NCBI GenBank assembly: GCA_963703035.1 | Contig: OY969780.1 | Location: 969,644 to 1,033,643, forward strand | Source of the DNA: an uncultured Acidobacteriaceae bacterium | Lineage (GTDB): Bacteria; Acidobacteriota; Terriglobia; Bryobacterales; Bryobacteraceae | DNA length: 64,000 nt | Reading direction: 5' to 3' | Shown here: positions 9,369 through 37,674 of the stretch, one piece after another | How the letters are laid out: each line of letters starts with the position of its first letter | Position numbering within the stretch: position 1 is the first letter of the stretch | Program-made: the position numbers and the translations under genes | The notes under the pieces: generated by a model | Told to the model about the DNA's origin: nothing | The model's database searches: none | The model's input: the letters and a program-made list of their open reading frames with translations, nothing else

Positions 9369-12300
9369 TCGGCGGCAGATTCGCTTTACGTAATTGCTCG
9401 TTCAGCTTTTGGAGCGGACCTGTCTTCAGCTGATCCCAGGCGCTCATCGTGCTTTGAAGATTCTTGCTTACGTCCTCGACTGCGGCTTTCGTTTGCGTAG
9501 TTGGGGCGTTATCGGACCCTTGAATGATATCGAGCAATCGCGCAAGTTCGAAATTGAGCAGGGTAAAGCTTTTCTGCGCTGCGGCGCCCGGTGCGCCGAA
9601 CGGGAACCCGCCGCGGCCTATGAGCGCCGACAATTGGGCATCAACGCTTCCGAGTGCCTCTTTCAACTCGGCATTTTGCTTCTGCTCGAGGCTCTTGACC
9701 TGGTCACGAGCCGCCCGAACTTGCCCCAGCGCGTCGTAATCTTGTTGCATCAGATTCGAGACCTGCAATGAGAGTGTGAGCTGTTCCTGCAACTCCGCGG
9801 CGGGCGTCTTGATCCGCGGGTCCATCGCGATTTCCAATGGTTCCGAGTGGGTCTCGCCTGCGGCTGTCAATTTAACCGTGTAGCCGCCAGGCAGAGCCCA
9901 GGGGCCCTGCGGAACTCGAGGGGTATTGCGGTAGATGGCGGAAATCGGATAGTCGTATCGGACCGCTCTGGGCGGAGCATAATGCAGATCCCAAACAAAT
10001 CTGTGCAGCCCCGGCTGTGCCGAGAGGATGCGCTGCGGGCGCACCCAGTAAGTCGGTACATTGAGCTCTTTTTGTAGGTCTGCTTCCGTCGTCGCGGGCT
10101 TATCCTCACTCGAATAGCGCCGCACAAGCTGATTCTTAGAATCGTAGATCTCGAGGGTCACGGGCCCGGCATTCGCGGCGATGCTGTAGTCGATAATTGC
10201 GCCATCGGGAGGGTTTTGACCGGCTGGAATTTCGGGCGGCAGCGGGGTATCGGTGTTGCGATTCCAGCGCCACCGGATCGCGTTTTCAGGCGCGAAGAGA
10301 GACGCCTTCGCCTGCCTGACATTCCCGCTCATTTGCCGCAATGGCGTGATGTCGTCCAGAATCCAGAATGACCGGCCATGCGTGCCGATGACGAGATCAT
10401 CGCCATGGATCACCAGATCTCGGACAGATGTGACGGGCAGATTCAACTGCAGCGTCTGCCAGTGATCGCCATCATCGAACGAAACAAACACGCCGATCTC
10501 AGTGCCCGCAAAGAGCAGCCCCTTTCGCTTGGGGTCTTCGCGAACAGCATTGACCACAGCTCGGTCGGGCAGGCCATTGATAATCTCCTTCCAAGTTTTG
10601 CCGCCGTCGTGCGTACGGTAGATATGCGGCTTGAGGTCGTCCAAACGGAAGCGATTGATGGCGGCATACGCCGTCGCCTCGTCGAAATGCGAGGCCTCCA
10701 TCAACGAAACCTTGCTCCAGGCGGTCAGCTCCGGCGGCGTTACGTTTTCCCAGTTCTTGCCGCCATCGTGCGTCACTTGAATCAACCCGTCATCCGTGCC
10801 GATCCAGATGAGGTTCACGTCCTTGAACGAGGGAGCAATGGTGTAGATCACGCCCCGGTGTTGTCCTTTTTCCGGATCTTGCGACTCGAAAGCCTGAATC
10901 ACCGAGGGCACTTGCCAGTGCTCGCGCGTGAGGTCGGGGCTGATGACATCCCAGCTATTGCCGCCATTGGTCGTCTTGAACAGAACGTTCGAGCCGAGAT
11001 ATAACGTGTGAGGATCGACGGGCGAGAACAGCAGCGGCATGGTTCGTACGAACCGGTATTTCCCGGGAAGCACTTGCGGGCTGACATCCTGAACGTCGCC
11101 AGTCACCCAGTTGAAGCGCGTCGCCTTGCCACCGTAAACGAGATTCGGGTTTAAGGGGTCGGGCGCAACGTATCCGTACTCTTCAACGCCCACCGGATGC
11201 CAATTGCGGAAGGTGATCGAGCCATCATCGCTTCGGCTCTCGATTCCCACCGATCCGCTTTCCTGCTGGCCGCCATACACCCAGTAAGGGAACCGATTAT
11301 CAGTAATAACGTGATAAAACTGCGCGGTCGGCTGGTTGTACCACGAGCTCCAGGTCTTTCCTCCATTGACGCTCAGCGTCGCGCCTTGGTCCACTCCGAG
11401 AAAAATGATGTCCGGATTCTGTGGATTGATCCAAATGGTGTGGTAATCATCGCCGCCGGGAGCGCCTTTTATTCCGATGAACGTCTGGCCTGCATCGATC
11501 GATCGATACGTCGTCGTATTTGCGATATAAACCTTGTCTTCGTTTTGTGGGTCCACTTGCACGCACGCAAAATCAGATCCGCGGCCCCATAGTCGTTCTT
11601 CGTTATTGATCTTGCGCCAGCTTGCGCCCGCATCATCGGAACGATAGAGGCCGCCATAGGCAGGCGAGGCGTCCATCAGCGCATACATGCGCTTGGGATC
11701 GCTTGGCGCAATGGCGAAACCGATTCTTCCCAGCCCCTGCGCGATCGTCGGAACTCCTTGCGTGAGCTGCTGCCACGTGTTTCCACCATCGGCCGATTTG
11801 TGCAGCCCGCTTCCCGGGCCGTTGAAAGAATTTCCAACTTCCCAGGGCGCTTGTCGCGCTGCCCACAAATCTGCATACACAATTTGCGGATTGCTGGGGT
11901 CGAAGGCTACTTCAACCGCGCCGGTATTTTCGTCCTTGTAGAGAACCCGATCGAAGGACTCGCCTCCGTTTGTAGAGCGGTAGACACCCCGTTCCGTATT
12001 CGGCCCGTAAGGGTGCCCTAACACCGCTATGAAAAGGCGCTTCGGATCGTGCGGGTCCACAATGATGGACGAGATCTGGTAACCATTGCGAAGCCCGAGA
12101 TGCTTCCAGGTTCGACCGGCATCCGTCGATTTATAGATGCCATCGCCGACTGAGAGATCGGGACGTTGCAACCCTTCACCGCTGCCGACGTAAAGAATAT
12201 TGGGATCGGACGGAGCGACTGCAAGAGCGCCTATGGAGCCGGTATCTTGCCCGTCGAAAATAGGCATCCACGTGTTGCCGTAATCGGTGCTCTTCCACAC

Positions 12301-12504
12301 ACCGCCATTGTTCGGGGCCATGTAGTATACATTCGGCTGCTGCACCACACCGCTGATTGCCACCGTGCGGCCCGCGCGAAAGGGTCCGATGAGGCGATAG
12401 CGCATCTCAGCGAAATAGCCGGAATCGACCTGTGCATTTGCTTTAAAGACGACACAGAAACTCAACATCAAGTTGATCAGGACAAGAAGGCGCATATTCG
12501 TCAT
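9343..12504 (-). CDS. Secreted BNR/Asp-box repeat protein (sortilin/VPS10- or GH74-like beta-propellers)
   Basis: At least 10 Asp-box motifs (STDYGNTW, STDAGRTW, SADGGNTW, THDGGKTW and others). The start is moved to 12504 (MTNMRLLVLINLMLSFCVVFKANAQ signal peptide). The 12759 start would run into the divergent neighbour. Confidence 0.85.
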   Translation of the reverse strand: MTNMRLLVLINLMLSFCVVFKANAQVDSGYFAEMRYRLIGPFRAGRTVAISGVVQQPNVYYMAPNNGGVWKSTDYGNTWMPIFDGQDTGSIGALAVAPSDPNILYVGSGEGLQRPDLSVGDGIYKSTDAGRTWKHLGLRNGYQISSIIVDPHDPKRLFIAVLGHPYGPNTERGVYRSTNGGESFDRVLYKDENTGAVEVAFDPSNPQIVYADLWAARQAPWEVGNSFNGPGSGLHKSADGGNTWQQLTQGVPTIAQGLGRIGFAIAPSDPKRMYALMDASPAYGGLYRSDDAGASWRKINNEERLWGRGSDFACVQVDPQNEDKVYIANTTTYRSIDAGQTFIGIKGAPGGDDYHTIWINPQNPDIIFLGVDQGATLSVNGGKTWSSWYNQPTAQFYHVITDNRFPYWVYGGQQESGSVGIESRSDDGSITFRNWHPVGVEEYGYVAPDPLNPNLVYGGKATRFNWVTGDVQDVSPQVLPGKYRFVRTMPLLFSPVDPHTLYLGSNVLFKTTNGGNSWDVISPDLTREHWQVPSVIQAFESQDPEKGQHRGVIYTIAPSFKDVNLIWIGTDDGLIQVTHDGGKNWENVTPPELTAWSKVSLMEASHFDEATAYAAINRFRLDDLKPHIYRTHDGGKTWKEIINGLPDRAVVNAVREDPKRKGLLFAGTEIGVFVSFDDGDHWQTLQLNLPVTSVRDLVIHGDDLVIGTHGRSFWILDDITPLRQMSGNVRQAKASLFAPENAIRWRWNRNTDTPLPPEIPAGQNPPDGAIIDYSIAANAGPVTLEIYDSKNQLVRRYSSEDKPATTEADLQKELNVPTYWVRPQRILSAQPGLHRFVWDLHYAPPRAVRYDYPISAIYRNTPRVPQGPWALPGGYTVKLTAAGETHSEPLEIAMDPRIKTPAAELQEQLTLSLQVSNLMQQDYDALGQVRAARDQVKSLEQKQNAELKEALGSVDAQLSALIGRGGFPFGAPGAAAQKSFTLLNFELARLLDIIQGSDNAPTTQTKAAVEDVSKNLQSTMSAWDQLKTGPLQKLNEQLRKANLPPITNAPAVP

Positions 12505-12548
12505 CCGGTTATGTAAACAACAGGTGCTATTGTATCGACCAGCAAGAT

Positions 12549-13487
12549 ATGACGGATTCCGGTTTGCGCAATTCACCGCGTTTAGGTGAACCGTGGCCCG
12601 CTCTGCCTCTCGAAGCATGGCAGGACACGTATGACACCTTGCACATGTGGCTTCAGATTGCCGGGAAAATCCGCATGGAATTTGCGCCGCCGCAGAATCA
12701 CTGGTGGAACACGGCTCTGTACGTAACCACCCGCGGTTTGACGACCTCCCCAATCCCATATCAGTCGCGGGCTTTTGAGCTTCAGTTCGACTTCATCGAT
12801 CACAATCTAGTAATCCAGACCTCCGAGGGAGGAATCAGAGCGGTCAAACTTGCATCGAAACCCGTCGCGGAATTTTATGGCGAAGTGATGTCGAGCCTGC
12901 ACGCGGAGGGCATTCAGGTCGCAATCAATACGAAGCCGCAGGAAGTTGCAAACCCGATTCCTTTCGATCAGGATGAGACGCATCGATCCTATGATGCGGA
13001 GTACGCCAACCGCTTCTGGCGAATTCTGCTCTCGACGCACGCCGTGCTGCAGGAATTCCGCGCAGAGTTTCTGGGCAAGTCCAGCCCAGTGCACTTCTTT
13101 TGGGGCAGTTGCGATCTCGCATGCACGCGCTTTTCGGGCCGCCCTGCTCCGCCGCGCAAAGGCGTGATCACCTCCGAAGCCTACTCCGAGGAATGCAGTA
13201 GCATCGGCTGGTGGCCGGGCGGAGCAGACGTGAAAGGCCCGGCTTTCTACGCCTACATGGCTCCCGAGCCGCCGCAATATGGAGAGCAGCGCGTGCAGCC
13301 AGATAATGCGTTTTACAGCCGCCAGCTTCGCGAATTTCTTCTGATGTACGACGACGTGCGGAGCGCAAAATCACCGCGCGCCGAAATTCTCGAATTCGCG
13401 CACAGCATCTATGAGGCCGGAGCTGATCTGGCGGACTGGAACCGCGCATCTCTGGAGAAGAATTTGAGTAGTGTTCGGGCTACCTGA
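12549..13487 (+). CDS. Conserved hypothetical protein, 312 aa
   Basis: Long clean ORF with coding-like composition. I cannot name a family with certainty. Confidence 0.6.
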   Translation: MTDSGLRNSPRLGEPWPALPLEAWQDTYDTLHMWLQIAGKIRMEFAPPQNHWWNTALYVTTRGLTTSPIPYQSRAFELQFDFIDHNLVIQTSEGGIRAVKLASKPVAEFYGEVMSSLHAEGIQVAINTKPQEVANPIPFDQDETHRSYDAEYANRFWRILLSTHAVLQEFRAEFLGKSSPVHFFWGSCDLACTRFSGRPAPPRKGVITSEAYSEECSSIGWWPGGADVKGPAFYAYMAPEPPQYGEQRVQPDNAFYSRQLREFLLMYDDVRSAKSPRAEILEFAHSIYEAGADLADWNRASLEKNLSSVRAT

Positions 13488-18198: not shown

Positions 18199-18399
18199 AG
18201 ACAGACTGATTCTCTTCGCTTCGATGGCTCGAACACACTAGTCTAGCGAATCGGAAATTTGGGTGTCAAACCGCGGGTTAGGAGGTAGTGGCTCAATTTG
18301 AGAATCAAGACACTCAAGCGGTATCTGCTTTTCTCAATCCACAGGGATGCGCAAGAGTGCGAAATGGGACTCTGTGAAGGGGAGCACGGAAATTTAGCG

Positions 18400-18507
18400 C
18401 TACTTCAGCGATCGATACACTCTGCTCCAGCCGCCGAACTGGGCCAATTTGAACTCTTTCGTGAACTGCCTGCGAGACAATCCCGCTGGCTCAATTCTCC
18501 ATTCCAT
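18400..18507 (-). pseudogene. Possible relic of an IS3-family OrfA (HTH_Tnp_1) N-terminus
   Basis: Minus-strand translation MEWRIEPAGLSRRQFTKEFKLAQFGGWSRVYRSLK*. The RRxFTxEFK segment resembles IS3 OrfA N-termini. The frame then degenerates and stops. It lies in a lower-GC spacer. Confidence 0.25.
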
Positions 18508-18653: not shown

Positions 18654-19796
18654 TTATTGCTCGACCTGAAGCTTGACCCAGCCCGGCAAGGTTGAGGGTT
18701 GCCCCCCCGCAAACACAATCCGCCGGGTCTTCGGAAACGGTACTCCTTCGCGAATTGCCTTTCCAAAGCTCGGGACTGCGCGCAGAATCTTGCGATATGA
18801 GGTCTGCTCCGTATCCAGAAAGCCGGCCTTCGAAACAAATCCGCTTCCCCACCCGAGGCACAGCAGGCATGCCTCGTTTGATTGCTGCGCACGCTCGAGT
18901 TCCTGGCCCAACCCCCGCACGCTCTCAGATACGCCCGCCAGCCCCGCCATTTCCGCATACCGTGCGTGAATCGCAAGCTGCGCCGCTGCATGCTGGTTTG
19001 CTGCCTCTAGAATCACCTTCGGCTCCGGCGTCGTGCGCCAGCCTAAAGCACGCATCACTTCCGGATTTTCATAAAATGTGCGTTCTTCCCACTCGCCGCC
19101 AAATCCACTTCCCGCCACAGCCATCTCCGCGAAAACCGCGGTCGCGGTCGAGATCCTCTCGCCTGGAACGCTTCCCCGACCGGCAACCTTCCATGACAGC
19201 TGCGGCTTTTCGGGCGACCGCGTATCGAGCGTCGACACACGCGTAAGAAATACTTTGAACGTCGATGCCGGAACCGGCTCACTATCCCCAGCGGCCACCA
19301 CCTTCATCTGCGAGCCGCCTGCGCTCACTTCCGCTGCCTCGCCAATTCGACGGCCCACCCGGTCGCCTTCAACGGTAGCTGCAATGCGCTCGATCGTGCT
19401 CGCTGTCCAGCGCGAAGAAATCACACTCGTCCGCAGCGCTCCCTTCAGCGCCGAGCCCCGCAGATACGCACCCCGGTAATCTGCGGCAAACGTCGGGATG
19501 AACAGCGATTCAGGCGGCGCGGAGTTCCAGATCGAGGTCAACCCTGCATCTTCAAATGGAATCCGGCGTTGTGAGAAATTCTGCGCGAACCCGCCCCAGG
19601 TCGCAAAATCCAGTCGGGTCGCCCGCCTCAGTTGCGCGAGGTACCCCTCCAGCCGGGGCCCGCGCGCCAGCAGCTTGAAGATCCTCGGCTGGTCGAGAAC
19701 GTTTACCTGATCCTTCCAGACCATGTAATCGATCGGTGAAAGCTCGCGCCCATCCCCGGCCAGAAGCGGCGTGAGAACTGTGATTCTATACTTCAC
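18654..19796 (-). CDS. csm5: Type III CRISPR RAMP protein Csm5 (Cas7-like)
   Basis: Motifs MKYRITVLTPLLAGDG, GSALKGALRT, CLGWGSGF, FPKTRRIVF and LPGWVKL, the classical Csm5 pattern. Confidence 0.8.
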   Translation of the reverse strand: MKYRITVLTPLLAGDGRELSPIDYMVWKDQVNVLDQPRIFKLLARGPRLEGYLAQLRRATRLDFATWGGFAQNFSQRRIPFEDAGLTSIWNSAPPESLFIPTFAADYRGAYLRGSALKGALRTSVISSRWTASTIERIAATVEGDRVGRRIGEAAEVSAGGSQMKVVAAGDSEPVPASTFKVFLTRVSTLDTRSPEKPQLSWKVAGRGSVPGERISTATAVFAEMAVAGSGFGGEWEERTFYENPEVMRALGWRTTPEPKVILEAANQHAAAQLAIHARYAEMAGLAGVSESVRGLGQELERAQQSNEACLLCLGWGSGFVSKAGFLDTEQTSYRKILRAVPSFGKAIREGVPFPKTRRIVFAGGQPSTLPGWVKLQVEQ

Positions 19797-20970
19797 TCAC
19801 CGCCTCCCCGCTCTTAATTTCCAAATCTTTGGTTGCCGGCTCGTCGCACGGGCGTGGCTCGAAGCCCTCGCTTGGCGTTTCAACCGCGCGCGGGTCTTCC
19901 AGGCCGTCTCGGTCTGGCAGTCTCAGCGCGAGCGCCAGCCCCGACCTGTACACCGGATGCGCGAAACCGTCCGGCGCCACATCCACGGCCGCGCCGATCG
20001 GCTCTGCCTCGGCCGCCATCACCGATCCCTCTACGATCATTCGTACGCGCTTCTTCTCGGTTGCCGGTCCCCGGCCGTTCTCTACGTAACCGCCGCGAAC
20101 GTCGGCCTCGTACGCGCCGGCCGCCCAATCGATGCGATCGCCCAACGCAGGCGAGTACAACGACAACAGCCAGTAAAGAGACGCTTCACTCCCCGTATCT
20201 GCCCTCGAGCTGCCGTTCTTCGGGGCGTGGCCCAGCTTCGGCAGAAATACATTCGGCCATCGTCCCTCTTGAAACTCGGGCGCTTCTGCCTGGCCCCAAC
20301 CAATCGTCCGCCGTCCTCCGAAACCGCTGTCCCCAAGCAGGCGAAATGCACCCCTCACCCGATCTTTCCAGACTGAAGCCACCCCCTCATCCGCGAATCT
20401 GGCGACCCCCCACAATCCCGAGCCCGGCTCAAACTCGATGCATCCGTGCGCGTCGACGTGCGCAGCACTTTGCGTTACGCGATCTACCGCCGCGCTGCTC
20501 CGTACGACCGTTCGGAATGGGCTTGCGTTGGGGCGATCCCGCCGCAACAAACAGCCGCTCTCGGCATCCGCAACCCATTGATCTGCCAGAACCGTTTCTC
20601 CTCTTAACATGGATTCAATGAGGCTGACCGGGACAAAACGTGCTGCCTTCCAGCGCACTTTTGTCAAAAACACCGGGCTTGACGTCGTTACTGATCCAGC
20701 CGTCGGCGGCCATAAGGTCGAAGGCGGTGTTGCAAACAACGTCTCAGCCTGATACGGAAAGAGCGAGCTGAATATGACTCCCGGTGCCGGCTTTCGCGCC
20801 GTCTCGTCTAACCACTCCTCTAAAAATCCCAAGTCCCGCATTGCGAGCGTGACTGCCGAATACAGCCGGTCGCTGCGGAATAGCGAGTCCACGCGATTCC
20901 GTCCGCCTTCTCCCGGACCGCTGCGCCACGCGCCGCGCGGCCGCAGCCGTATCAACATCGCCGGCTGCAT
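19786..20970 (-). CDS. csm4: Type III CRISPR RAMP protein Csm4 (Cas5)
   Basis: N-terminal FRSDRLYSAVTLAM (compare SDTLFSAL of Csm4/Cmr3), G-rich loop LGDSGFGGRRTIGWGQ, and YWLLSLYSP. Confidence 0.8.
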   Translation of the reverse strand: MQPAMLIRLRPRGAWRSGPGEGGRNRVDSLFRSDRLYSAVTLAMRDLGFLEEWLDETARKPAPGVIFSSLFPYQAETLFATPPSTLWPPTAGSVTTSSPVFLTKVRWKAARFVPVSLIESMLRGETVLADQWVADAESGCLLRRDRPNASPFRTVVRSSAAVDRVTQSAAHVDAHGCIEFEPGSGLWGVARFADEGVASVWKDRVRGAFRLLGDSGFGGRRTIGWGQAEAPEFQEGRWPNVFLPKLGHAPKNGSSRADTGSEASLYWLLSLYSPALGDRIDWAAGAYEADVRGGYVENGRGPATEKKRVRMIVEGSVMAAEAEPIGAAVDVAPDGFAHPVYRSGLALALRLPDRDGLEDPRAVETPSEGFEPRPCDEPATKDLEIKSGEAVSEV

Positions 20971-20973
20971 TTC

Positions 20974-21807
20974 TTACGCTAGTTTTTCGGCGAAATCGTC
21001 GCTGCCGGCCAATTGCTGCAGCGCCGGCAAGTCCGCGCTAGAAAGCAGCGTGCTCTCGTCCGCGCCCTTCGCGTAATAATCCTTGCTGCGCCACGTGAGT
21101 TTCAGGTCCGTAAGGCCGATGCGTCCACTACCCCGGCTCCCACCGCCTCCGAGAGCATCATCGGCCAGCAATCGCAACCCTTCCGCCACTCGCGCCAACA
21201 GCGGGCGGTCTTCGGGGCACAGCACATCCAGGACCATGCGAAAACGAAATCGTGCGCCGGCCGGAACGCGCTCGAGCGTGCGAGGATTCGCCTGTGACGT
21301 GATCCGGTCTACCGCGTTCTCGCTCTTCACTTCTGTCAATTCATCGTCGAGGTTCTCGCGCATTTGCGGCGTAATACTGTCCACCACAAGCGGCGCATCA
21401 TAAACTGTCAGCCGCGCCGGAGTCGCCATCCCGCCTTCAATCGCCTCTCCGGTCACCTTCTCTACGCGTCCCGGATTCCGCCCGAACAAAACGCAAATCT
21501 CATCGTCCGGCCGGTCGCTCTGATGAATTCGCACCTCCTGTCCTTTCCGCTTCGATAGATAGACCAACTCGCCCGGTACAGCCAGCCCCAGAGTCTGTTC
21601 GAGCAGCGAGCGCAACCGGCCACGCAATGAGCTGCCCGGTATATAGGGAATCCCGAACGCGTCCTTTATCACCGGATTGTCCGCGCCCCCAATCTCGAGC
21701 GACCCTTTTCCCGCGCCGATGTGCAATCCTGTCTGGCACTGAATCTCGCCTTCCAAAATCAGCTTGCCCAAAAATGTCAATTCCGTAGCTGCGCTATGAG
21801 AGCTCAT
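20974..21807 (-). CDS. csm3: Type III CRISPR backbone RNase Csm3 (Cas7)
   Basis: GLHIGAGKGSLEIGGADNPVIKDAFGIPYIPGSSLRGRLRS and C-terminal LGGGGSRGSGRI. Confidence 0.88.
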   Translation of the reverse strand: MSSHSAATELTFLGKLILEGEIQCQTGLHIGAGKGSLEIGGADNPVIKDAFGIPYIPGSSLRGRLRSLLEQTLGLAVPGELVYLSKRKGQEVRIHQSDRPDDEICVLFGRNPGRVEKVTGEAIEGGMATPARLTVYDAPLVVDSITPQMRENLDDELTEVKSENAVDRITSQANPRTLERVPAGARFRFRMVLDVLCPEDRPLLARVAEGLRLLADDALGGGGSRGSGRIGLTDLKLTWRSKDYYAKGADESTLLSSADLPALQQLAGSDDFAEKLA

Positions 21808-21831
21808 GCGTTATCAATCCTGTTCTGCGCC

Positions 21832-22398
21832 TTACTCGTTATACGCGATAATCGCTTCAAATAAATCCCGAAACCGCTCATACCCCCGCGTATCGTTTTT
21901 CCGCGTGACTTGCAGCAGCAGCCGCTCAAGCGCATCCAGGCTCCGCAGCGAATGCCGCGCAATCGTGTACGCAAGGCGCGCCCGCACCATCACAAACTCG
22001 TGCTGGCGTTCATTCTCCGGAGCCCGCGTCGCCCGCCGAACAGCGTTGTATAACCGCCGCAGCTGGCTCTTTGTACCCGAATCCATATCGCGCATCCGGC
22101 TCACCACCACGTGCGCCTGATTGTCCAGATACAAGCTGTCGTTGATCAGTTTTTCCAAATCGATCTCCGGTGGACCTTCGCCGCGCCGCTCACCTGCACC
22201 ACGCGGACCGCCTCCGAAACGTTGCTCCCGGCCGCGATCTCCAGGTCTATCACCGCCGCGCTCGCCTCGGCCGTCTCCTCCTCCTCGTTCCTGTGACCCG
22301 CGCTCGTTTCCTCTCGGGCCGCCTCCGCGGTTCTCGCGCGGCGGCCGATTCTCTGCGCCCTTGCGCTCTTCCGTCTTCTTCTCGTCAATCTCAGGCAT
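21832..22398 (-). CDS. csm2: Type III CRISPR small subunit Csm2 (Cas11) with RGG-rich N-terminal tail
   Basis: C-terminal helical half SQLRRLYNAVRR...ARLAYTIARH...FRDLFEAIIAYNE fits Csm2. Residues 1-80 are Arg/Gly/Glu low complexity. Confidence 0.72.
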   Translation of the reverse strand: MPEIDEKKTEERKGAENRPPRENRGGGPRGNERGSQERGGGDGRGERGGDRPGDRGREQRFGGGPRGAGERRGEGPPEIDLEKLINDSLYLDNQAHVVVSRMRDMDSGTKSQLRRLYNAVRRATRAPENERQHEFVMVRARLAYTIARHSLRSLDALERLLLQVTRKNDTRGYERFRDLFEAIIAYNE

Positions 22399-22432
22399 TT
22401 CAAATTCCTTTCTGCCAAACCAGCCGCTCTCA

Positions 22433-23911
22433 CTAGCTTCCGATTGCGAGACGCGCCCACTCCAATCCCACCCGCGCCGAAGCCCGCAGCTTGAAACCCG
22501 CCGTCTTCTTCCCTACCAGGTTTGTTATCACCGTGTTTCGGATATGGTTCAGCTCTTTCCCGCGCGCTTCCGGAATCACGCGCGAGAGCCGCATGGCCGT
22601 CCGCCAGGGCTTATCGACGCGAATCGCTTTATTGCTCCGGGTGGCACGCGCCGAAAAAGCCTCTCGATAAATCGCCGCCAAGTCATTGATGTACTCGGGC
22701 GAATATCCAAACTCCCGCACCAATCGCACCAGCCCCGCCTTCAGTTCTTCCGCATCGCCCAACCGCTTCCATTCGAGAGTTCTCCCGAATAAGTGAAACG
22801 TGCCGGCTTCTGTCGCCTTGGCCGCCCGCAATTGTGTCGCGGCTTCTTCAAACACCATCGCCGCCGGGCTATCAGCCTCGGGCGCAATCGCCAGCGCCAT
22901 GCTGATCGTCTTTCCTTCCAAGCTCGGAAATGCTTCGGCATGCTGCTCAATGAATTTCTTGAACAGCCGCTCAATTTCCTGCGCCAGCAGGGTCAGCGCA
23001 TCCCATGTCCCGATCAGCGCGAACTCCTCGCCGCCGCGATATAAGATCGTCACGTTGCGGAAGAAATCCGGCATCGTGCACAGCAGCGCCAGTTCGCCCG
23101 CGAAGAACTCCTTAGATGACGCCGAGAGCTGTATGTGCTCTTCAATCGACCCGGCGCCTTTCAACAACGCGTCGAACTGATCGACGTCACCCCGCAGCAC
23201 TCCCCATCGCGCGGCGCCTTCCGCTCGTTGCGCCAAATCCGGCAACGATGCCGGGCGAGCGCCACTGTCATCCATAGCGAACCGGCGCGGAAAGAGAATT
23301 GCCTCTTCATCCAACCCGGGCTGATCGATCAACCGCCAGACATGCTCTCCTTCATCCCAGCTAAGCTGTGCCGGAGCGCCGCTCGACCAGCCAACCTTCG
23401 ACGCAGAAATCAACTTCTCAGCAAAATGCCCAAAATAGCTCTCCGCATCGGGATCCCGCGCTTCCACAAACGTCGCGAAAAAGCCATCTGAGCCGTTCAT
23501 CGCCAGAGGCGTCGCAGCCTTCGCGAATAACGCATCATCAAGGCGTTTCCGAGCTACTGGCCACGCGCCCAAATTTTCGGTGCTCGCCCAAATCAACCGC
23601 AAAGCGCTCCCGGAAAGCTTCATCACAGCGCCACTCGCGCGTTCGAGAAACGCATTCGCACGCGGAATATCTTCTTCAGCGAGAACCAGAAGGAATTGTT
23701 CAGCGCTGCTCGATCCCAACAGCATTCGCGACAGCTTCAGTTCTGCCAACAGCGCTCGCGGCAGAACCTCGCAGAACAGTGTCAGCCACGCGCAACGGCC
23801 CATCAGATCAGCCGTCTGTTCAACCGCGCCGCCCAGCTGCCCGGAGGATCGTGCCGTCAGGAACTCTTCGGCGCCGAGCAGTTGAGCTTGCAGAAAAACT
23901 TGCAGCGACAT
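22433..23911 (-). CDS. cas10: Minimal Cas10/Csm1-like protein (492 aa; Palm/cyclase domain with GGEEF; no HD domain, no zinc finger)
   Basis: Motifs RWGVLRGDVDQFD, ILYRGGEEFALIGTWD, ISMALAIAP and AKATEAGTFHLFG follow the Cas10 Palm2 pattern. It is the first gene of the csm operon. No H-D dyad region or CxxC pairs are present. Confidence 0.72.
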   Translation of the reverse strand: MSLQVFLQAQLLGAEEFLTARSSGQLGGAVEQTADLMGRCAWLTLFCEVLPRALLAELKLSRMLLGSSSAEQFLLVLAEEDIPRANAFLERASGAVMKLSGSALRLIWASTENLGAWPVARKRLDDALFAKAATPLAMNGSDGFFATFVEARDPDAESYFGHFAEKLISASKVGWSSGAPAQLSWDEGEHVWRLIDQPGLDEEAILFPRRFAMDDSGARPASLPDLAQRAEGAARWGVLRGDVDQFDALLKGAGSIEEHIQLSASSKEFFAGELALLCTMPDFFRNVTILYRGGEEFALIGTWDALTLLAQEIERLFKKFIEQHAEAFPSLEGKTISMALAIAPEADSPAAMVFEEAATQLRAAKATEAGTFHLFGRTLEWKRLGDAEELKAGLVRLVREFGYSPEYINDLAAIYREAFSARATRSNKAIRVDKPWRTAMRLSRVIPEARGKELNHIRNTVITNLVGKKTAGFKLRASARVGLEWARLAIGS

Positions 23912-24029
23912 GAGACCAGGTCGTAGCGGCCCGCAACCTCGCGGGCTTGGCGTGTTCAGACGTGAATGCTTCCAAGCCTAACACACGGGCTTACCCCCGT
24001 CAGCCTTATCGTAAGAGACACTAGACTGC

Positions 24030-24929
24030 GTGCGCGGCCGGACCACTTTTATCACGCGGCATCCCGTCGTCAGCTATTTCGTGCTGACGTTCGCGGTCTC
24101 TTGGACAGCCGCGCTTTGTGTGGCGGCTCCCTATCTCATCCGCCAGGCCCCACTTCCGAAGCTGACCGGCATCCTAATGTTCCCGGCTATGCTTCTCGGC
24201 CCTAGTTTCGCGGGTATCATCTTGACCGGGATTGTAGACGGAAAACGCGGCTTGCGCGATCTCCTCTCCCGCTTATCGCTCGCGCGCATCGCAGGACGCT
24301 GGTACGCAGCTCTCCTGATCCCCCCGCTTCTGGTCCTGACCGTTCTCTTCTGTTTGACAGCCCTCGTATCTCCCGCTTACCGTCCCAATTTCTTTCTTAT
24401 GGGTGTCTTCTTCGGCGTCCCTGCGGGATTCGTTGAAGAAATCGGCTGGACAGGCTATCTGTTCCCCAAAATGGCTTCGCGGCACAATGCATTGGCTTCG
24501 AGCATCGGATTAGGATTGCTATGGAGCGCCTGGCATTTACCCGTCATCAATTTCCTGGGCGCCGCCACACCCCACGGTTCTTACTGGTTTCCGTTTTTCC
24601 TCGTATTTGCGGTAGCTATGACGGCCATGCGCGTGCTGATCTGCTGGATCTACACCAACACGAAGAGCGTCCTTATAGCGCAGCTCATGCATGTCAGCTC
24701 GACAGGCTCCCTGGTCGTGTTTAGCGCTCCGCGTGTGATACCAGCGCAAGAAGTCATATGGTACGGGCTTTACAGCGTTGCGCTATGGCTCACGGTCGGC
24801 ATCGTTATCAGACGTTACAGCAAGCGTCTAACGCGCCAGACGGCCCAGTGCGCCGCCTCGGGAGCAACTGAGATCAATGCCTCCACAGCGCCGCAGCAGC
24901 CTCTTGCACCCCCACCCGAAATCCGATAA
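24030..24929 (+). CDS. CPBP family intramembrane glutamic endopeptidase (CAAX protease/Abi)
   Basis: Polytopic membrane protein with motif 1 VEEIGWTGY and motif 2 LLWSAWHL. GTG start. Confidence 0.8.
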   Translation: MRGRTTFITRHPVVSYFVLTFAVSWTAALCVAAPYLIRQAPLPKLTGILMFPAMLLGPSFAGIILTGIVDGKRGLRDLLSRLSLARIAGRWYAALLIPPLLVLTVLFCLTALVSPAYRPNFFLMGVFFGVPAGFVEEIGWTGYLFPKMASRHNALASSIGLGLLWSAWHLPVINFLGAATPHGSYWFPFFLVFAVAMTAMRVLICWIYTNTKSVLIAQLMHVSSTGSLVVFSAPRVIPAQEVIWYGLYSVALWLTVGIVIRRYSKRLTRQTAQCAASGATEINASTAPQQPLAPPPEIR

Positions 24930-24964: not shown

Positions 24965-26119
24965 ATGCCCGATCCGGAAATAACCCCAGCAACCGCCGTC
25001 GCGCCCGTCTCTCCCGCGGTTCAGTTGGATGCCACTACGCCTGCCGAAAGCATGCTGTCACTGCTGCAATCGGCTTACGCAGCGTTTCAGCTGCAAAATG
25101 TCCCAAGTTCGAAACAGGTTGCCACTCTCGCCAAGGCGCTCTTTGACTCTGCCAAGGTCACCGCTTCGCCCGTCGAAGTTCTCGTCCTCGAACTGCTCAA
25201 AAATCAGGTATGTCTGTTCGAGCCCTTCACGAGAGCCGTCGTCCGGCAAGGAGAAGGTCGCTTCTCCGACGCCCTCAAAGAGATTGACACGGCGCTCCGC
25301 ATCGCCCAAGGATCCATCGCAAGCGTAGATCAGTACGCCCGCACGCCTGATCACGACGCGGATCTTATTGAAACCCTCCAGCCGACTTCGCAGTTGATGT
25401 TGATCCTCCTCAAAGGCTACAAAGCTACAATTCGCGCGGATGTTGTTGGCTTTCAAGGAAGGATTTCCGAGTATCTCGACCTCCTCAGGGAAGCCATAGC
25501 CGAGTTCAACAAGGGAAACGATCTTCCGCCCACCGACGATCCTTCTGTCCTGATGGTTGCTGGAATTGTCTCCAGCCTTGCTGATCGCCTCGAGACTCGC
25601 GTCAGGTTTTTCGAACTGACACCCGGACCGCCTCCGGCCGTGCCAACCGGAAAGAAAATCTTTCTCATTCACGGAAAGAACGAGGCGAAGCGGCGGGAAC
25701 TCGGCGACCTCCTGAAAGATAAACTAAATCAGCAAGTCGTCATTCTCGAAGACCAGCTCGACGCTGGAATGACGATTATCGAGAAATTCACGAAGTACGC
25801 ATCCGAGTGTTGCTATGCCTTTGCCTTGCTGACCCCCGATGATTTCGTCAAGAGCGGTGAGACTAGCATCTTTCAGGCGCGGCCCAACGTCCTGTTTGAG
25901 ATCGGCTGGTTTTACGGCAAATTCGGTCGCGATCGGGTGATGCTGGTTCTCCAGGAAGGAACCGATATCCCTTCTGATCTCAGCGGGATCGTATACGTCA
26001 AATTTAATGCTAGCGTCGGTGAGCAATTCCTGCGTTTCCAGGAAGAGCTCACACGTATCGGCCTCATTGGCCAGAAGCCCGCACGCAAGCCGCGCAGCCG
26101 CACCGCCGTCACGCAGTAA
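24965..26119 (+). CDS. TIR-like domain protein (CAP12/Pycsar-effector type TIR at the C-terminus, unassigned helical N-terminal domain)
   Basis: Residues about 230-350: KKIFLIHGKNE...AFALLTPDD...ARPNVLFEIGWFYGKFGRDRVMLVL...IPSDLSGIVY. This matches the pattern of the predicted nucleotide-binding TIR-like family. Confidence 0.75.
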   Translation: MPDPEITPATAVAPVSPAVQLDATTPAESMLSLLQSAYAAFQLQNVPSSKQVATLAKALFDSAKVTASPVEVLVLELLKNQVCLFEPFTRAVVRQGEGRFSDALKEIDTALRIAQGSIASVDQYARTPDHDADLIETLQPTSQLMLILLKGYKATIRADVVGFQGRISEYLDLLREAIAEFNKGNDLPPTDDPSVLMVAGIVSSLADRLETRVRFFELTPGPPPAVPTGKKIFLIHGKNEAKRRELGDLLKDKLNQQVVILEDQLDAGMTIIEKFTKYASECCYAFALLTPDDFVKSGETSIFQARPNVLFEIGWFYGKFGRDRVMLVLQEGTDIPSDLSGIVYVKFNASVGEQFLRFQEELTRIGLIGQKPARKPRSRTAVTQ

Positions 26120-26913: not shown

Positions 26914-27945
26914 CTAAAAACTGCGCTGCGGCCGATACCCCGGCCGCGCCCGAATTTTATATTTCCGCATTGCATCCGGCGTCAGCTGAATGCTGATCCT
27001 GCGGAATCCCTCATTCGGGTTCGGTTGTGGATAGTAAGTAACTGTATAGCTATTCCCGAGATCTTCACGAATCAGCTCAAACGCTTCCACCTGCGTTTGC
27101 CACGTCTTCGCAAAATAGCTCTTCCCGCCCGTGGTCGCCGAAATACGCTTAAAAATTGAGCTCGATATCGGATCGTTCGTCACCGCGCTGGTCGAGATCA
27201 CATAAATCGGAATGCCTTCATCCTCAGCCACGGCGCGCACATCATCGGGCGCCACCATGCTCGCATTATCGGGTCCGTTAGAAAACACGATCACCACTTT
27301 TCGCCCCGGCACTCTTGCAGCGTCACGCAGCGTCAGCAGAAGACAATTGTAAAGAGCCGAATCGTCTCCTGCCACCGCCTTTCGCAACCCGGCAATCGCC
27401 GTTGAGCGGTCACGGCTCAGCGGAACAGCGCGGTTCAAGTTCCGGCTATACGTGTAAACAGCGATTGAATCGGCGCGATCCAAGCCGCGAATGAAATCGG
27501 CGATCGCATCCGATGCGTACACGAATCCCCGGTACATGTAGTTGCTCGTATCGAACAGAACAAACACATTCGTGCCCGTCATCGCATCCGACCGCAGGTC
27601 CACAACCCCCGGCCCCGGATTGCCGTTACCCACGTTTGCCCTTCCCGCAGGAAGCGGCTTGGTCTGCCCGTTGTCAAGCACCTGCATCGGCGCCCGCGTG
27701 CCTTCTGCGAACGTGGCCATTTTCTGCGGAATCTCGTCTTCGTATATTTTGAAGTCCGCCGGCTTCAGCCCGTTCACGTAATGACCCTTCTGGTCGGTAA
27801 CCGTGAAGCTCAGGACCACCATGTCCACCTTTACGTGAAAGGTAGTCTGATCCTGGTCTTGCGCCTGTACCCGGCCATGCATCCACACAGCCGCCCCGCA
27901 TCCCACCAACCCTATCGCCCCCAAAACACGCCCGAATCTCTTCAC
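26914..27945 (-). CDS. VWA domain protein (acidobacterial VWFA-related family), secreted
   Basis: Signal peptide, then FHVKVDMVVLSFTVTDQKGHYVNGLKPADFKIYEDE. vWA core VFVLFDTSNYM. Confidence 0.8.
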   Translation of the reverse strand: MKRFGRVLGAIGLVGCGAAVWMHGRVQAQDQDQTTFHVKVDMVVLSFTVTDQKGHYVNGLKPADFKIYEDEIPQKMATFAEGTRAPMQVLDNGQTKPLPAGRANVGNGNPGPGVVDLRSDAMTGTNVFVLFDTSNYMYRGFVYASDAIADFIRGLDRADSIAVYTYSRNLNRAVPLSRDRSTAIAGLRKAVAGDDSALYNCLLLTLRDAARVPGRKVVIVFSNGPDNASMVAPDDVRAVAEDEGIPIYVISTSAVTNDPISSSIFKRISATTGGKSYFAKTWQTQVEAFELIREDLGNSYTVTYYPQPNPNEGFRRISIQLTPDAMRKYKIRARPGYRPQRSF

Positions 27946-27955
27946 CTTGCCCTTC

Positions 27956-30900
27956 CTAATTCTGTGATGTATTCAGTCCCGCGCGCTGGTTGCTGCGCTG
28001 CTTGACGTTCTCTCCTACCGTATGCAGAGAGCGCAAAACTGCCGGCCAGTCTTCCAAATGCGTTGCAAAAATATTCTCGATCATCGAACGGTTCCACTCC
28101 GGTACGTAGGAGTCCAGCTCCTCGATCGGCGCACCCACTTCATCCGCCAGCGTGGCGTAGTAGAGGTTGTCCGATTCCCAGCTCTCCGCAAGAATCCGGC
28201 TTGAGTAGCCCATCAGCGCTGGAAACGTGCGCAGATACAAAAGGCCCGGCCGGTATGAGTGCGTGAGCGTCGGTTTCGGCGTGCCGAATGAGCGCGCCAT
28301 CGCATCGCGCGTCAGGTCCGGATTGTTCTGCTCCGCCAAAGCCGCAATCGCGCTCGATGCTGCGTCGGGGGAAACGTCTCGAAGAGCCGCATCCTGCGCC
28401 AGTGCGTAGAGTTCTGACGTCGGCACTTGCGAGACTGCCTTCCGGAAATCTCCCGCATTCAGTTCATCTCGCAGGCGCTCCACTCGCGCAGGCGTCGCGA
28501 ACCGCCCATACGCTTCAAAAACCCGCCCCTGCAGTGACGGATCCAAAGCGGCTGCCGCCAGCAGGTTCCGCCCCCGCTGGACGTGCAGCGACACCCAGCG
28601 CACTTGCTCCGCTTTCACATTCCTCCATCTGGTCACCGTCACATCCACAATCATCTGCGGCACCAGATCTGCCCAAATCAGCGCTTGCTCGCGCTTCGGC
28701 GTCAAAAAGTTTTGCTCGGCTTCGGCGATCGCGTAGGGAATCGCCACCAGCGATCCCATCAGCCGTCCGCCCGAGCTTGCCGGCCATCCACTTCCAGTAA
28801 TTTCCGTCGGGCGCCACGAAGCTGGTGTCTCCGGAGGACCAATGAAATCGTGGCCTCGCACGAACAGCGGATTCGTCAACAGTAACTGCGCCCCCGCCGG
28901 AGCATAGTAACAGTACACAAGCCCTACCAAAGAGTCCCGCAGGAATGGCGCAAGCAGCGTCTGCGCATCCTTCTTTCCAGAGTTCTTCGCCAAGTCCTCG
29001 AAGCTAACCTTTTTCTCCTCGCCAATGTGTCGTTCGCTCCAGTAACCCACTGACATCGCGCTCTTCTCCGCCGATGAAAGCGAGCCGCGCAGCGATTCGG
29101 TATCCTCCAGACGCCCCAGTTGCTCGTCGATTTTCTTCATCGTCTTCGGGTCCAGCGAGCCCTTCCCCATCAGATCCGCCACCGTGAATAGGCTATCCAG
29201 AGGAATCAAACGCTGCGCGTCAAAAATGCGCAAGAAACTTTCCGATGGCGAGTAAGCTCCGGGCCCTACCGGCCCGTGCACCTTGCCGACTAGCAGTTCG
29301 ACCATTTGCTCGTGCAGGGATCCGCTCGGCCGAACCTGTACCGCCGATAACAGCGCCTCTACTCCCGACCGCCCCGCCGCGAACACCTCCGCCTCCTGCT
29401 TCACGTGATCAAAAGGTTCGATCACCTTCGCAAAGGTTGCGTCGACTGAATTCGGCCCAATTGCATTCTGGCGCGCGAGGATATCCCACAGCTCGATTAG
29501 CGCCTGCACGGTCCCGATCGCGTCGGCTTTCGCGAGCCCATCATGCATGGCCGAGAGGTCCGTGCACGTATCCAGATAGTGCTCGATCGACGCCTCGCTT
29601 AACAGGGGCTCGTCCGCGAACACGACATACTGTGCCCCATAGCGTCTATAACCCGCTATCAGCCGCGCTGCCAGTTGCGCCGACATCGGCTTCGGCCGGT
29701 TGCGGTCCACATCGTTCAGCGTCAGAAAGATTTTTAGCGGTTCATTTTCAACCGTCTTCCGGCTGAGCCCGAACAGCGCTTCCAAAAGATCATCGCTCGT
29801 TTTCCACGAACTCGCGGATCGCGTCAGCCGGCCGTCATACTTCCCATGCGGGTGCTTGATGAACAGATTCCGCCAAACATCCAGGTTGCCCGGAACGTGA
29901 GGCTGTCCGTTCGCATCAATTCGGAGTGACGTGGTCAGCAATAACAACTCGGTGCTCGAGCGGAAAACAGGTCGCGCCGGTCCCGGGCTGGTGATCTTCC
30001 CGCGTAGCGCTTCATAAAACCGCTTCATGCGCTCCGGTTGCGCCAAATAGGCCACAGTCGGCCCGTTCATTCGCGATAGCGCATCGAAGTAACTCGCCAG
30101 CCATCCGTCGTCGACAGCGATCAGCTTGTCGAAAAACGCCCCCGGGTTGCTCGGCGGCACTCCCACCAGCGAAGCCCAAACTTTCGGCGAGCCAGGCACA
30201 GCGGCAGCCCCGTTCCGGATCTGAAACATGCTGCCGAAGAAATCTAAGACGTGTGCGTAAATCTTGAGCTTGGCCGCCGATGCTTCCCGGCGCAAAGCCT
30301 CCGCCGTCTCGCGATCTAACCGCGATAGTCCCAGATACAAGCGGCACAGCGATGGATCGGAAAGGAACGCGTCGACAAAATCGGCCTGCCCCGTCTTCCC
30401 CAGCGCCGACAACCAGTACTCCGCGTTATATAAAACAGGCACCTGCGTGGACGCAAACGCCAACTCGAAACGCCGGTTCGCGCGAAGGTCCTGCTCCAGC
30501 TGCGTTAACGGAAATCCCGAATCGATCGTGAGAAAAGCCCGTGTCGCATTCACCGTCTCGAGAACGATGTCCGCCCCGCACGATCCGCGCATGCGATACC
30601 CCAGCGTCTTCAGCAACCGCCCCGTTTCTTCGCTGTCGCAAGTCGGGATCACGATCTTCCGGTCCTTGTTCGTCATCGCCTGTAATTCCCGAGCCTGTCC
30701 TATATACCGGATCAGCAATCGCAGGTATTCGGTCTGTACCAAAGCTTCATTCCCCGAGGCTTCGTAACCATTCGTCACAACATTCCGCGCCAGAGACGGA
30801 AGCAGATCTTCAGGCGCGAGTTCGGGTGACAGCGCCGCCATGCGCGCAAATGAAGAAAGCGGGCCCGGAATCGTCACTGTGCTGAAGAGGTTCACGGGCG

Positions 30901-31330
30901 TCTTTCTCGCCGGCATGTTCAAATCGTCGCCGCCCGCCCCCCGGTACTGCTTCAGATCGCTCGAGAGTTCTGTGTCCCGTCCTTGCATGAAATCCAACAG
31001 GACCGCTTGCCGCAATGCCAATTTCCGCTTCGCCGGATCATTCTCTTCGGCAGCCCACTTCAAGTACGCGTCCCTGCTCCCCGGATCGCCATGCCGCTCG
31101 AGAAATTCCGCTAGAGCAGCCGCGCCTGCGCTGTTTCCCGGCTTCGCCGCTGCTTCTTCCAGAACCGACCGCGCGCCCGGCAAGTCGCCGCTCGATTCGT
31201 GCTGCATCACCTGTTGCTGCAAGTCCCCTGGTGAGGCGCCGCGCATCGGCCCCATCGCAATGCAGCCGAAAGTCGCGGCCAGCGCGACGTAGAAAAAAGT
31301 TCTTCCGGCAGAATCAGCTTTCATACCCAC
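27956..31330 (-). CDS. Large secreted hypothetical protein, 1124 aa
   Basis: Uninterrupted ORF with an N-terminal hydrophobic signal-like segment. It ends 10 nt before the VWA gene. No family recognised. Confidence 0.65.
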   Translation of the reverse strand: MGMKADSAGRTFFYVALAATFGCIAMGPMRGASPGDLQQQVMQHESSGDLPGARSVLEEAAAKPGNSAGAAALAEFLERHGDPGSRDAYLKWAAEENDPAKRKLALRQAVLLDFMQGRDTELSSDLKQYRGAGGDDLNMPARKTPVNLFSTVTIPGPLSSFARMAALSPELAPEDLLPSLARNVVTNGYEASGNEALVQTEYLRLLIRYIGQARELQAMTNKDRKIVIPTCDSEETGRLLKTLGYRMRGSCGADIVLETVNATRAFLTIDSGFPLTQLEQDLRANRRFELAFASTQVPVLYNAEYWLSALGKTGQADFVDAFLSDPSLCRLYLGLSRLDRETAEALRREASAAKLKIYAHVLDFFGSMFQIRNGAAAVPGSPKVWASLVGVPPSNPGAFFDKLIAVDDGWLASYFDALSRMNGPTVAYLAQPERMKRFYEALRGKITSPGPARPVFRSSTELLLLTTSLRIDANGQPHVPGNLDVWRNLFIKHPHGKYDGRLTRSASSWKTSDDLLEALFGLSRKTVENEPLKIFLTLNDVDRNRPKPMSAQLAARLIAGYRRYGAQYVVFADEPLLSEASIEHYLDTCTDLSAMHDGLAKADAIGTVQALIELWDILARQNAIGPNSVDATFAKVIEPFDHVKQEAEVFAAGRSGVEALLSAVQVRPSGSLHEQMVELLVGKVHGPVGPGAYSPSESFLRIFDAQRLIPLDSLFTVADLMGKGSLDPKTMKKIDEQLGRLEDTESLRGSLSSAEKSAMSVGYWSERHIGEEKKVSFEDLAKNSGKKDAQTLLAPFLRDSLVGLVYCYYAPAGAQLLLTNPLFVRGHDFIGPPETPASWRPTEITGSGWPASSGGRLMGSLVAIPYAIAEAEQNFLTPKREQALIWADLVPQMIVDVTVTRWRNVKAEQVRWVSLHVQRGRNLLAAAALDPSLQGRVFEAYGRFATPARVERLRDELNAGDFRKAVSQVPTSELYALAQDAALRDVSPDAASSAIAALAEQNNPDLTRDAMARSFGTPKPTLTHSYRPGLLYLRTFPALMGYSSRILAESWESDNLYYATLADEVGAPIEELDSYVPEWNRSMIENIFATHLEDWPAVLRSLHTVGENVKQRSNQRAGLNTSQN

Positions 31331-37661: not shown

Positions 37662-37674
37662 TCAACTCTGGTTC

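Follow-up and report, generated by a model that had tools for sequence, protein, structure and literature searches.

Can a type III CRISPR effector persist on a bacterial chromosome with no CRISPR array beside it, and if so, what does it do there? The question is raised by an operon at positions 18,654 to 23,911 of a 64,000-nucleotide stretch of DNA (64 kb, hereafter the window) from an uncultured Acidobacteriaceae bacterium (assembly GCA_963703035.1, contig OY969780.1, positions 969,644 to 1,033,643). Its five genes read as cas10, csm2, csm3, csm4 and csm5. The operon is a genuine five-gene effector derived from type III-A. It is also one member of a large family that is confined to Acidobacteriota, occupies one chromosomal position, is inherited vertically and is under purifying selection.

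The Csm operon and its reduced Cas10

The five genes, with the lengths of their products in amino acids (aa) and their place in a complex with CRISPR RNA (crRNA), are:

22433-23911, minus strand: cas10 (csm1), 492 aa, a compact form without the HD domain
21832-22398, minus strand: csm2, the Cas11 small subunit, 188 aa
20974-21807, minus strand: csm3, the Cas7 backbone RNase, 277 aa
19786-20970, minus strand: csm4, the Cas5 subunit, which pairs with Cas10 and binds the crRNA 5' handle, 394 aa
18654-19796, minus strand: csm5, the Cas7-like cap subunit, 380 aa

From cas10 to csm5 the intergenic spacing is 34, 24 and 3 nt, and csm4 and csm5 share 11 nt. Subunit identity was examined with Pfam, NCBIfam and PADLOC profiles. 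Csm2 (TIGR01870, 41 bits, cut-off 30.6), Csm3 (TIGR02582, 4e-58, score 196.7, cut-off 90), Csm4 (TIGR01903, 1e-34, score 119.9, cut-off 55, aligned over positions 3-303 of 304, with an additional match to PF17953 Csm4_C) and Csm5 (TIGR01899, 6e-12, score 45.7, cut-off 38.3) all exceed the NCBI curated type III-A equivalog cut-offs. The PADLOC III-A models concur, those for Csm5 matching to 3e-17. Cas10 matches Pfam PF22335 (2e-15). Against NCBIfam TIGR02578 it aligns over model positions 491-732 of 753, and its score of 121.9 does not reach the cut-off of 170 because half of the model is unmatched. A first-pass annotation, made from the sequence without database searches, had read these as five co-directional minus-strand csm genes. 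Open reading frame (ORF) positions, spacing and all three sets of profiles agree with it, and each of the five proteins now has a Csm/RAMP family assignment.

The same annotation had described Cas10 as reduced, which profile alignment and structure prediction bear out. In the family profile, residues 6-101 correspond to about residues 250-350 of solved Csm1 (Palm1) and residues 214-392 to about 515-685 (Palm2). The N-terminus of the protein corresponds to Csm1 residue ~250. The HD nuclease domain (~250 aa) is absent in its entirety, and little is left of the inter-palm region. The protein's layout is Palm1 (~1-130), a linker, Palm2 (~230-370) and a helical D4 domain (~380-492). An AlphaFold2 model was built from an 18-sequence alignment (predicted local distance difference test, pLDDT, 85; predicted template modelling score, pTM, 0.86). 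The top Foldseek matches of this model are all type III-A Csm1, with template modelling scores (TM-scores) of 0.7-0.75 for the query and ~0.5 for the target. Because the HD domain is absent, Cas10 is predicted to have lost its DNase activity.

The Palm domains have fared better. Window Cas10 has GDVD as its first metal-binding motif and GGEE in place of GGDD, so the acidic residues are kept. The first motif is DVD or DID in 72/78 family members. At the second position GGDD, GGED, GGEE or GGDE is found in ~80% of the family, and in ~15-20% the motif is degenerate with one or both acidic residues lost (GGDG, GGDN, AGDG, EGDG, GVAG, SNDG, GASD, GLGE and GIEG). To judge from these motifs, cyclase activity seems dispensable in some lineages. 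The catalytic aspartate motif of Csm3, GADNPV, is present in the window protein and in 49/49 family members, which makes RNA cleavage look like the activity that the family has retained universally.

Csm2 is unusual in its N-terminus. TIGR01870 and PF03750 cover residues 91-187, and the ~90 aa ahead of them form a disordered extension in which arginine-glycine and acidic residues abound, much like an RGG box. The extension keeps its character across the family (medians of 24% glycine, 21% arginine or lysine and 7 RG/GR dipeptides). We know of no canonical Csm2 protein with an RG-rich N-terminal extension.

A chromosomal family without arrays in cis

Related loci were compared from genomes (4), metagenomes (80) and distant family members (8), about 90 loci and ~800 kb in all. 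The protein collection contains 1312 relatives of Cas10. The best 120 are all 430-518 aa long with 64-100% identity, and those among them with a named source come from Acidobacteriaceae, Bryobacteraceae or Acidobacteriota. In a library clustered at 50% identity, about 20 full-length Cas10 clusters of 450-506 aa extend down to 36% identity. Canonical Cas10 proteins (750-814 aa) align through their C-terminal half alone, at ~30% identity.

The order cas10-csm2-csm3-csm4-csm5 is kept in every one of the ~90 loci that is long enough to show it, all five ORFs are intact in each full-length locus, and Csm3 is 76-96% identical to that of the window. Upstream lies a core-genome block composed of ileS, lspA, lgt, sometimes a GFO-family oxidoreductase, a gene for a 1124-aa protein, an acidobact_VWFA gene and a divergent ydfG-like SDR gene. 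Gene order persists in two distant loci (L091 and L092) where Cas10 identity has fallen to 33-41%. In L092 the VWA protein and an ATPase encoded nearby are each 71% identical to their counterparts and the 1124-aa protein 48%, against 33% for Cas10. Since these neighbours are far more conserved than Cas10, the hosts are still Acidobacteriota and the synteny reflects shared descent.

Selection was estimated from the ratio of non-synonymous to synonymous substitution rates (Ka/Ks), taking medians over pairs with Ks of 0.1-1. The medians are 0.07 for cas10, 0.05 for csm2, 0.04 for csm3, 0.16 for csm4 and 0.13 for csm5; those of the flanking SDR, VWA and 1124-aa genes are 0.07-0.09. Where two loci differ more in Cas10, they also tend to differ more in the flanking gene for the 1124-aa protein (Spearman 0.74 between pairwise identities, Mantel p 0.001). 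The two flanking genes correlate with each other at 0.55, no more strongly than Cas10 does. A search of 72,556 plasmid records brought up no close relative of Cas10, the one match being to an Arcobacter plasmid at 28.5% identity over Palm2, and 50,697 phage records contain no match to Csm3. This pattern of inheritance is unlike that of a defence island. Comparing the neighbourhoods of Cas10 homologues thus brought out a large, vertically inherited, array-less family that the first-pass annotation could not see.

The search for an array addresses linkage in cis: it covers the 64-kb window and 10 kb on either side of the related loci. The window contains no CRISPR-like spaced direct repeats or tandem array, and no Rfam family or tRNA. 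A PADLOC scan of its other 60 ORFs returned no Cas6, Cas1, Cas2, Csm6, Csx1 or CARF model, its sole match being a TIR protein described below, and no window protein matches CARF or SAVED. These scans agree with the first-pass claim that array, cas6, adaptation module and CARF gene are all absent from the window. No CRISPR-like repeats were found in 85 related loci (791 kb), in a search that detected a synthetic array used as positive control, and the called genes of the closest relative (L001) and of distant loci L090-L093 include no member of the cas6, cas1 or cas2 families.

Published genomes bear indirectly on whether an array lies elsewhere in the genome. Solibacter usitatus is placed in Bryobacteraceae in current taxonomy. 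The complete 9.9-Mb genome of strain Ellin6076 has no CRISPR; it has three cas genes, Acid_0892, 0893 and 0895, which were taken as leftovers (Challacombe et al. 2011, PMC3174227). Three profile-detectable cas genes in a five-gene span are the pattern that this operon would be expected to give. For three further complete genomes, those of Granulicella tundricola, G. mallensis and Terriglobus saanensis, the published genome tables give 'CRISPR repeats 0'.

Conservation extends beyond the coding sequence into the promoter and leader of cas10:

23912-23985, minus strand: cas10 promoter and 5' leader, ~74 nt, conserved in 64 related loci
23975-23985, minus strand: extended -10 element TGTGTTAGGCT, whose invariant positions fit TGnTAnnnT
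23950-23970, minus strand: hairpin 1, weak, with 65% of cells paired
23929-23946, minus strand: hairpin 2, GCCCGC...GCGGGC, with 91.7% paired and compensatory changes in 4/6 pairs
23919-23928, minus strand: conserved tail CGCUACGACC, of family form CG[CG]YNNGACC, followed by 4-13 variable nt and the AUG

The leader opens with TGTGTTAGCCT, in which T1, T3, G4, T6, A7 and T11 are invariant. The covariation score of hairpin 2 was reached by no shuffle; RNAalifold on the leader retains a 4-bp core only. Apart from 3 chance matches, the element occurs once per locus. Conservation continues into cas10 itself: over codons 2-8, which reach to about 23888, third positions carry 1.5-2.0 bits, against ~0.2 beyond, with codon 5 (GTN) at 0.57. 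These early codons are AU-rich (CAA, TTT, TTG, CAA) despite the 58% G+C content of the genome.

Possible functions and their rivals

We judge it moderately probable that the operon is a domesticated, or exapted, type III-A effector which now serves the host in RNA-level regulation or in innate surveillance, in place of adaptive immunity. This reading follows from three observations taken together: purifying selection on the five genes, the absence in cis of an array and of cas6, adaptation, CARF and SAVED genes, and the existence of genomes in the same families that are reported to be CRISPR-free. The operon probably no longer works as adaptive immunity. Repurposing had been named at first pass as one of two options for an effector with no visible crRNA source; with an array-less family under selection now in view, it is the option we consider most likely. 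A more specific history is put forward only tentatively. An ancestor of a large Acidobacteriota group may have captured an ancient III-A effector, which was then kept as a CRISPR-independent, RNA-guided host machine using a genome-encoded non-CRISPR RNA, possibly one derived from its own mRNA leader.

From the family assignments, the five proteins would assemble a Csm-type ribonucleoprotein with Cas10-Csm4 at the base, a Csm3 backbone, a minor filament of Csm2 carrying the RG-rich tails, and a Csm5 cap. Given the conserved aspartate, such a complex would be expected to bind RNA and to cleave complementary RNA through Csm3. The Palm domains of Cas10, with motifs that are mostly intact and drifting, may add a signalling output, by way of nucleotides, that is optional: in the majority of the family, Cas10 would start nucleotide synthesis once the target is bound, and the product would be sensed by a receptor that is unlinked or not yet recognised. 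The complex is not expected to cut DNA. The RNA that it binds is probably not the product of a CRISPR array.

Several points weigh against domestication. We know of no type III complex that assembles without crRNA, and no alternative guide RNA was identified for this one. In most members the cyclase motif still looks active, and such a motif would normally mean that an effector sensing cyclic oligoadenylate exists somewhere. The absence of arrays is established only within 10 kb of the loci and in the 64-kb window. The genomes cited above help only so far: Acid_0892, 0893 and 0895 are no more than candidate members of this operon family, and the operon may or may not be present in Granulicella tundricola, G. 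mallensis and Terriglobus saanensis. Nor does the leader readily yield a guide. At E <= 10 it has two chance-level matches in Rfam and none to a CRISPR-DR family, its folding energy is no better than that of shuffled sequence (z = +0.79), and distant family members keep the -10 element without the hairpins. Finally, many ordinary type III loci that have no arrays or cas6 borrow those of other loci in trans (PMC12669027).

The last point leads to the strongest rival, an ordinary split locus, which we consider rather unlikely. Here the operon would be an antiviral III-A effector that takes its crRNAs from a distant array and relies on the cas6 and cas1-cas2 of another CRISPR-Cas locus. Most III-B, III-C, III-E and III-F loci have no arrays, and Cas6 supplied in trans serves many type III systems (PMC12669027), the window is 64 kb of a 5.0-Mb genome, and the kept Csm3 aspartate and mostly kept Cas10 cyclase motif are what a working immune effector would have. 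However, in some 90 loci the operon sits at one and the same place in the core genome, without an array or further cas genes in its vicinity. Their divergence follows the chromosome, unlike that of defence islands, and no plasmid or phage copies were found. Published genomes of the same families are reported to be without CRISPR, and Solibacter to have its cas genes without any. Lastly, 15-20% of members have a decayed cyclase motif, and yet purifying selection on the proteins continues. Should a distant array supply it after all, the operon would be an ordinary split locus, set apart only by its unusual conservation.

A second alternative, improbable in our judgement, makes the complex self-guided. 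The cas10 leader would be a solitary repeat-like element, consisting of a stem-loop and the handle-like tail CUACGACC, and a fixed guide would be cut from the 5' end of the operon's own mRNA, in parallel with CreA/CreR or tracr-L style self-regulation. In outline, the GC stem-loop and the ~8-10 conserved nt that follow it may resemble a CRISPR repeat of type III that ends in an 8-nt handle. Hairpin 2 covaries and each locus has a single copy of the element; in addition the near-invariant codons 2-8, codon 5 excepted, stretch conservation ~30-38 nt past the tail, which is about the length of a crRNA spacer. Against this, the stretch between tail and AUG varies in length and sequence, and the Rfam result and the hairpin-less distant members count here as well. 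The guide would moreover be the sense strand of cas10, for which neither the window nor viral contigs offered a complementary target; a 23-mer from the start of the cas10 ORF has no match in viral contigs and no second copy in the window at up to 3 mismatches. The AU-rich early codons fit an unstructured initiation region equally well, and the folding energy is unexceptional. An ordinary cis-regulatory leader with such an initiation region would explain the same data. The hairpin is kept as an unexplained lead and not as a finding.

The third alternative involves two genes upstream of cas10:

24030-24929, plus strand: CPBP (Rce1-like) membrane protease, PF02517 3.5e-11, divergent from cas10
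24965-26119, plus strand: helical-bundle and TIR protein of the CAP12/Pycsar-type TIR class, PF10137 2.5e-33 at residues 231-348

The first-pass annotation had pointed to both when it named the operon a candidate undescribed system. If they were coupled to it, a messenger made by Cas10 on target recognition would activate the adjacent membrane-associated CPBP/TIR NADase and lead to abortive infection, a reading we regard as quite improbable. It is suggested by the distance of 1 kb between the divergent TIR gene and cas10, by a TIR domain of the CAP12/Pycsar/CBASS effector class, by the acidic GGEE of window Cas10, and by the TIR-SAVED and CARF-TIR effectors known from type III loci (PMC11229360). 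However, CPBP and TIR genes are confined to the window and its closest relative (L001/L004, 83% Cas10 identity), that is, to 2 independent loci of more than 40 with upstream sequence. Elsewhere SDR or other genes lie directly upstream of cas10; CPBP-TIR is therefore an insertion specific to the window lineage, and it lies outside the conserved cas10 promoter and leader. The two domains form a single 699-aa protein in the closest relative (L001:7789-9888). In the window they are separated by a stop codon and a 35-nt gap, with an AGGAG ribosome-binding site ahead of the TIR start.

The TIR protein itself shows no sign of a sensor for Cas10 products. Its best PADLOC model is PDC-S35 (5.6e-42, to the TIR part only), and CBASS TIR effectors and PycTIR also match. 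In an AlphaFold2 model (pLDDT 85), residues 26-218 fold into a 7-helix bundle and residues 231-364 into the TIR domain. Foldseek matched the TIR domain of TIR-STING and nothing else, and it found no CARF, SAVED, STING or cyclic nucleotide monophosphate (cNMP)-binding fold in the all-helical N-terminal bundle. Full-length homologues (36-54% identity) are sporadic in unrelated taxa such as Smithella and Methanothrix, where they stand alone without Csm or CPBP neighbours. A general receptor for the Cas10 signal was rejected on these grounds: the protein is not conserved with the operon, stands alone elsewhere and has a helical N-terminus. Most likely the TIR gene is an independent single-gene defence candidate that landed beside cas10; a coupling to Cas10 limited to the window lineage has a low probability.

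As a separate observation, the homologue in Methanothrix (L095:3338-5622; also L096 and L097) adjoins TIR_2-TPR and SLATT-domain proteins in what looks like a small defence cluster.

The last alternative, a decaying remnant of a lost CRISPR-Cas locus with no current function, would account for the loss of HD domain, array, cas6, adaptation genes and csm6 and was the interpretation given to the Solibacter cas genes by their authors in 2011 (PMC3174227), but the selection analysis already refutes it, with five intact ORFs, Ka/Ks of 0.04-0.16, Csm3 at 76-96% identity, a conserved promoter and leader, and gene order intact down to 33% Cas10 identity, and we give it almost no chance.

Flanking genes and comparison with known systems

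The remaining neighbours of the operon in the window are:

26914-31330, minus strand: gene pair for the 1124-aa protein and the acidobact_VWFA protein, found upstream of the operon even in distant relatives
upstream flank, besides CPBP and TIR: SDR, VWA protein, 1124-aa protein, Mo-oxidoreductase and M28 peptidase
18398-18507, minus strand: frameshifted remnant of an IS3-family transposase OrfA, read from the sequence (SRRQFTKEFKLA...VRRLEQSVSIAEVA), between csm5 and the rplM promoter
18240-18269: rplM promoter, TTGACA-18-TAGACT
downstream flank: frr, pyrH, tsf, rpsB, rpsI and rplM

The upstream pair was considered as a source of functional partners for the complex. The 1124-aa protein has no Pfam or NCBIfam family match. 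Read by eye, its N-terminus looks like a Cys-ending lipoprotein type and that of the VWA protein like a signal-peptide type. With N-termini that resemble export signals, and with far higher conservation than Cas10, the two were rejected as partners. No conserved nuclease gene stands beside the operon across the loci.

Downstream, 23/30 loci with enough sequence have a gene for an ExeA-like AAA ATPase of ~304 aa, 55-200 nt 3' of csm5. The representative is:

L009:15304-16218, plus strand: ExeA-like AAA ATPase, TIGR03015 1e-85 (under the cut-off), Pfam AAA_22 5e-27

TIGR03015 is the family of XrtA/PEP-CTERM-associated ATPases. The gene has its own conserved promoter, TTGCCG...TATGATGG; it may be a partner of the operon or only a syntenic neighbour. 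No trace of it is left in the window, where rplM follows csm5, and in none of the related loci is rplM found there. The OrfA peptide, once its frame is repaired, has a weak Pfam HTH_Tnp_1 match (E 0.0018, under the cut-off). The remnant probably marks a rearrangement that swapped the usual ATPase gene for the ribosomal operon beside csm5. The adjacency to rplM-rpsI and the housekeeping flanks pointed out at first pass are real in the window, but as a feature of the system the adjacency finds no support among the relatives.

Two further observations concern other parts of the window. One is a gene cluster:

39287-39844, minus strand: extracytoplasmic function (ECF)-type sigma factor
37675-39324, minus strand: 549-aa protein with a weak zf-HC2 anti-sigma motif
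34569-37661, minus strand: 1030-aa CarboxypepD_reg and outer-membrane beta-barrel protein

Together these occupy 34569-39844. The other is an overlap of ~210 nt (12549-12759) between a 1138-aa Sortilin/BNR-repeat ORF (9343-12759, minus strand) and a DUF5996 gene (12549-13487, plus strand); the 1138-aa ORF probably has its true start at a more downstream position.

This Cas10/Csm family turned up in none of the full-text literature searches, and the supplements of PMC12669027 make no mention of Acidobacteria. A 2024 survey of type III loci left out Cas10 proteins of less than 500 aa (PMC11229360), a limit that most of this family would fall under; this may explain why the family has gone unremarked. 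Type III effectors are usually viewed as mobile, fast in turnover and dependent on arrays. In the present family the operon is a fixed part of the core genome of soil bacteria that are abundant, and it has been one for so long that Cas10 identity has dropped to 33%; it has no array in cis at any locus examined, and is under strong purifying selection. If it is independent of arrays, the questions that follow are which RNA is loaded by a type III complex, what receives the Cas10 signal when no CARF effector is present, and by what route the complex was domesticated. The combination of a compact Cas10 with an RG-rich Cas11 tail may also be of interest for engineering small type III tools.

The closest relatives by sequence are the canonical III-A systems of Staphylococcus epidermidis, Streptococcus thermophilus and Lactococcus lactis. 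The operon shares their gene order, four of its proteins exceed the III-A cut-offs, its Cas10 model superposes on Csm1 and the Csm3 aspartate is kept. It differs from them in a Cas10 without the HD domain and most of the inter-palm region, in a Csm2 with an RG-rich disordered N-terminus, in having no array, cas6, cas1/2 or csm6 in cis, and in being vertically inherited in the core genome, not carried in a mobile defence island. TIR effectors of TIR-SAVED/CARF-TIR, CBASS and Pycsar systems invite a comparison with the window TIR domain, which is of the same CAP12/Pycsar/TIR-STING class. Unlike TIR-SAVED and CARF-TIR effectors, the window protein has no SAVED, CARF, STING or cNMP sensor, and its gene is not conserved with the operon.

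The first-pass annotation had suggested a match to one of the recently proposed reduced type III variants. III-G and III-H as well as III-I do resemble the operon in their reductive evolution and missing adaptation modules (PMC12669027). In these subtypes the Palm of Cas10 is inactivated or lost, the HD domain is apparently active and Cas7 is without its catalytic aspartate; III-G has Csx26, in III-H Cas11 replaces the C-terminal domain of Cas10, and III-I has a Cas7-11i fusion (PMC12669027). The operon shows the reverse, with HD lost, Palm motifs mostly kept and the Cas7 aspartate kept. It has neither Csx26 nor a Cas7-11i fusion, and Csm2 and the Cas7 proteins are encoded by separate genes. 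With domain patterns that are opposite, the suggested match does not hold.

In concept, the closest analogues are HRAMP and ARAMP, type III-derived RAMP modules that persist without a CRISPR array. To our knowledge they have no Cas10 and are found in Haloarchaea and Asgard archaea. They are typically tied to HNH or PD-(D/E)xK nucleases (PMC12669027). The operon, in contrast, has a clear Cas10, a full set of Csm2-5, no associated nuclease and a bacterial host. If its guide should prove to be fixed and genome-encoded, it would be a bacterial, Cas10-containing counterpart of archaeal HRAMP and ARAMP, and a natural type III complex with a fixed guide.

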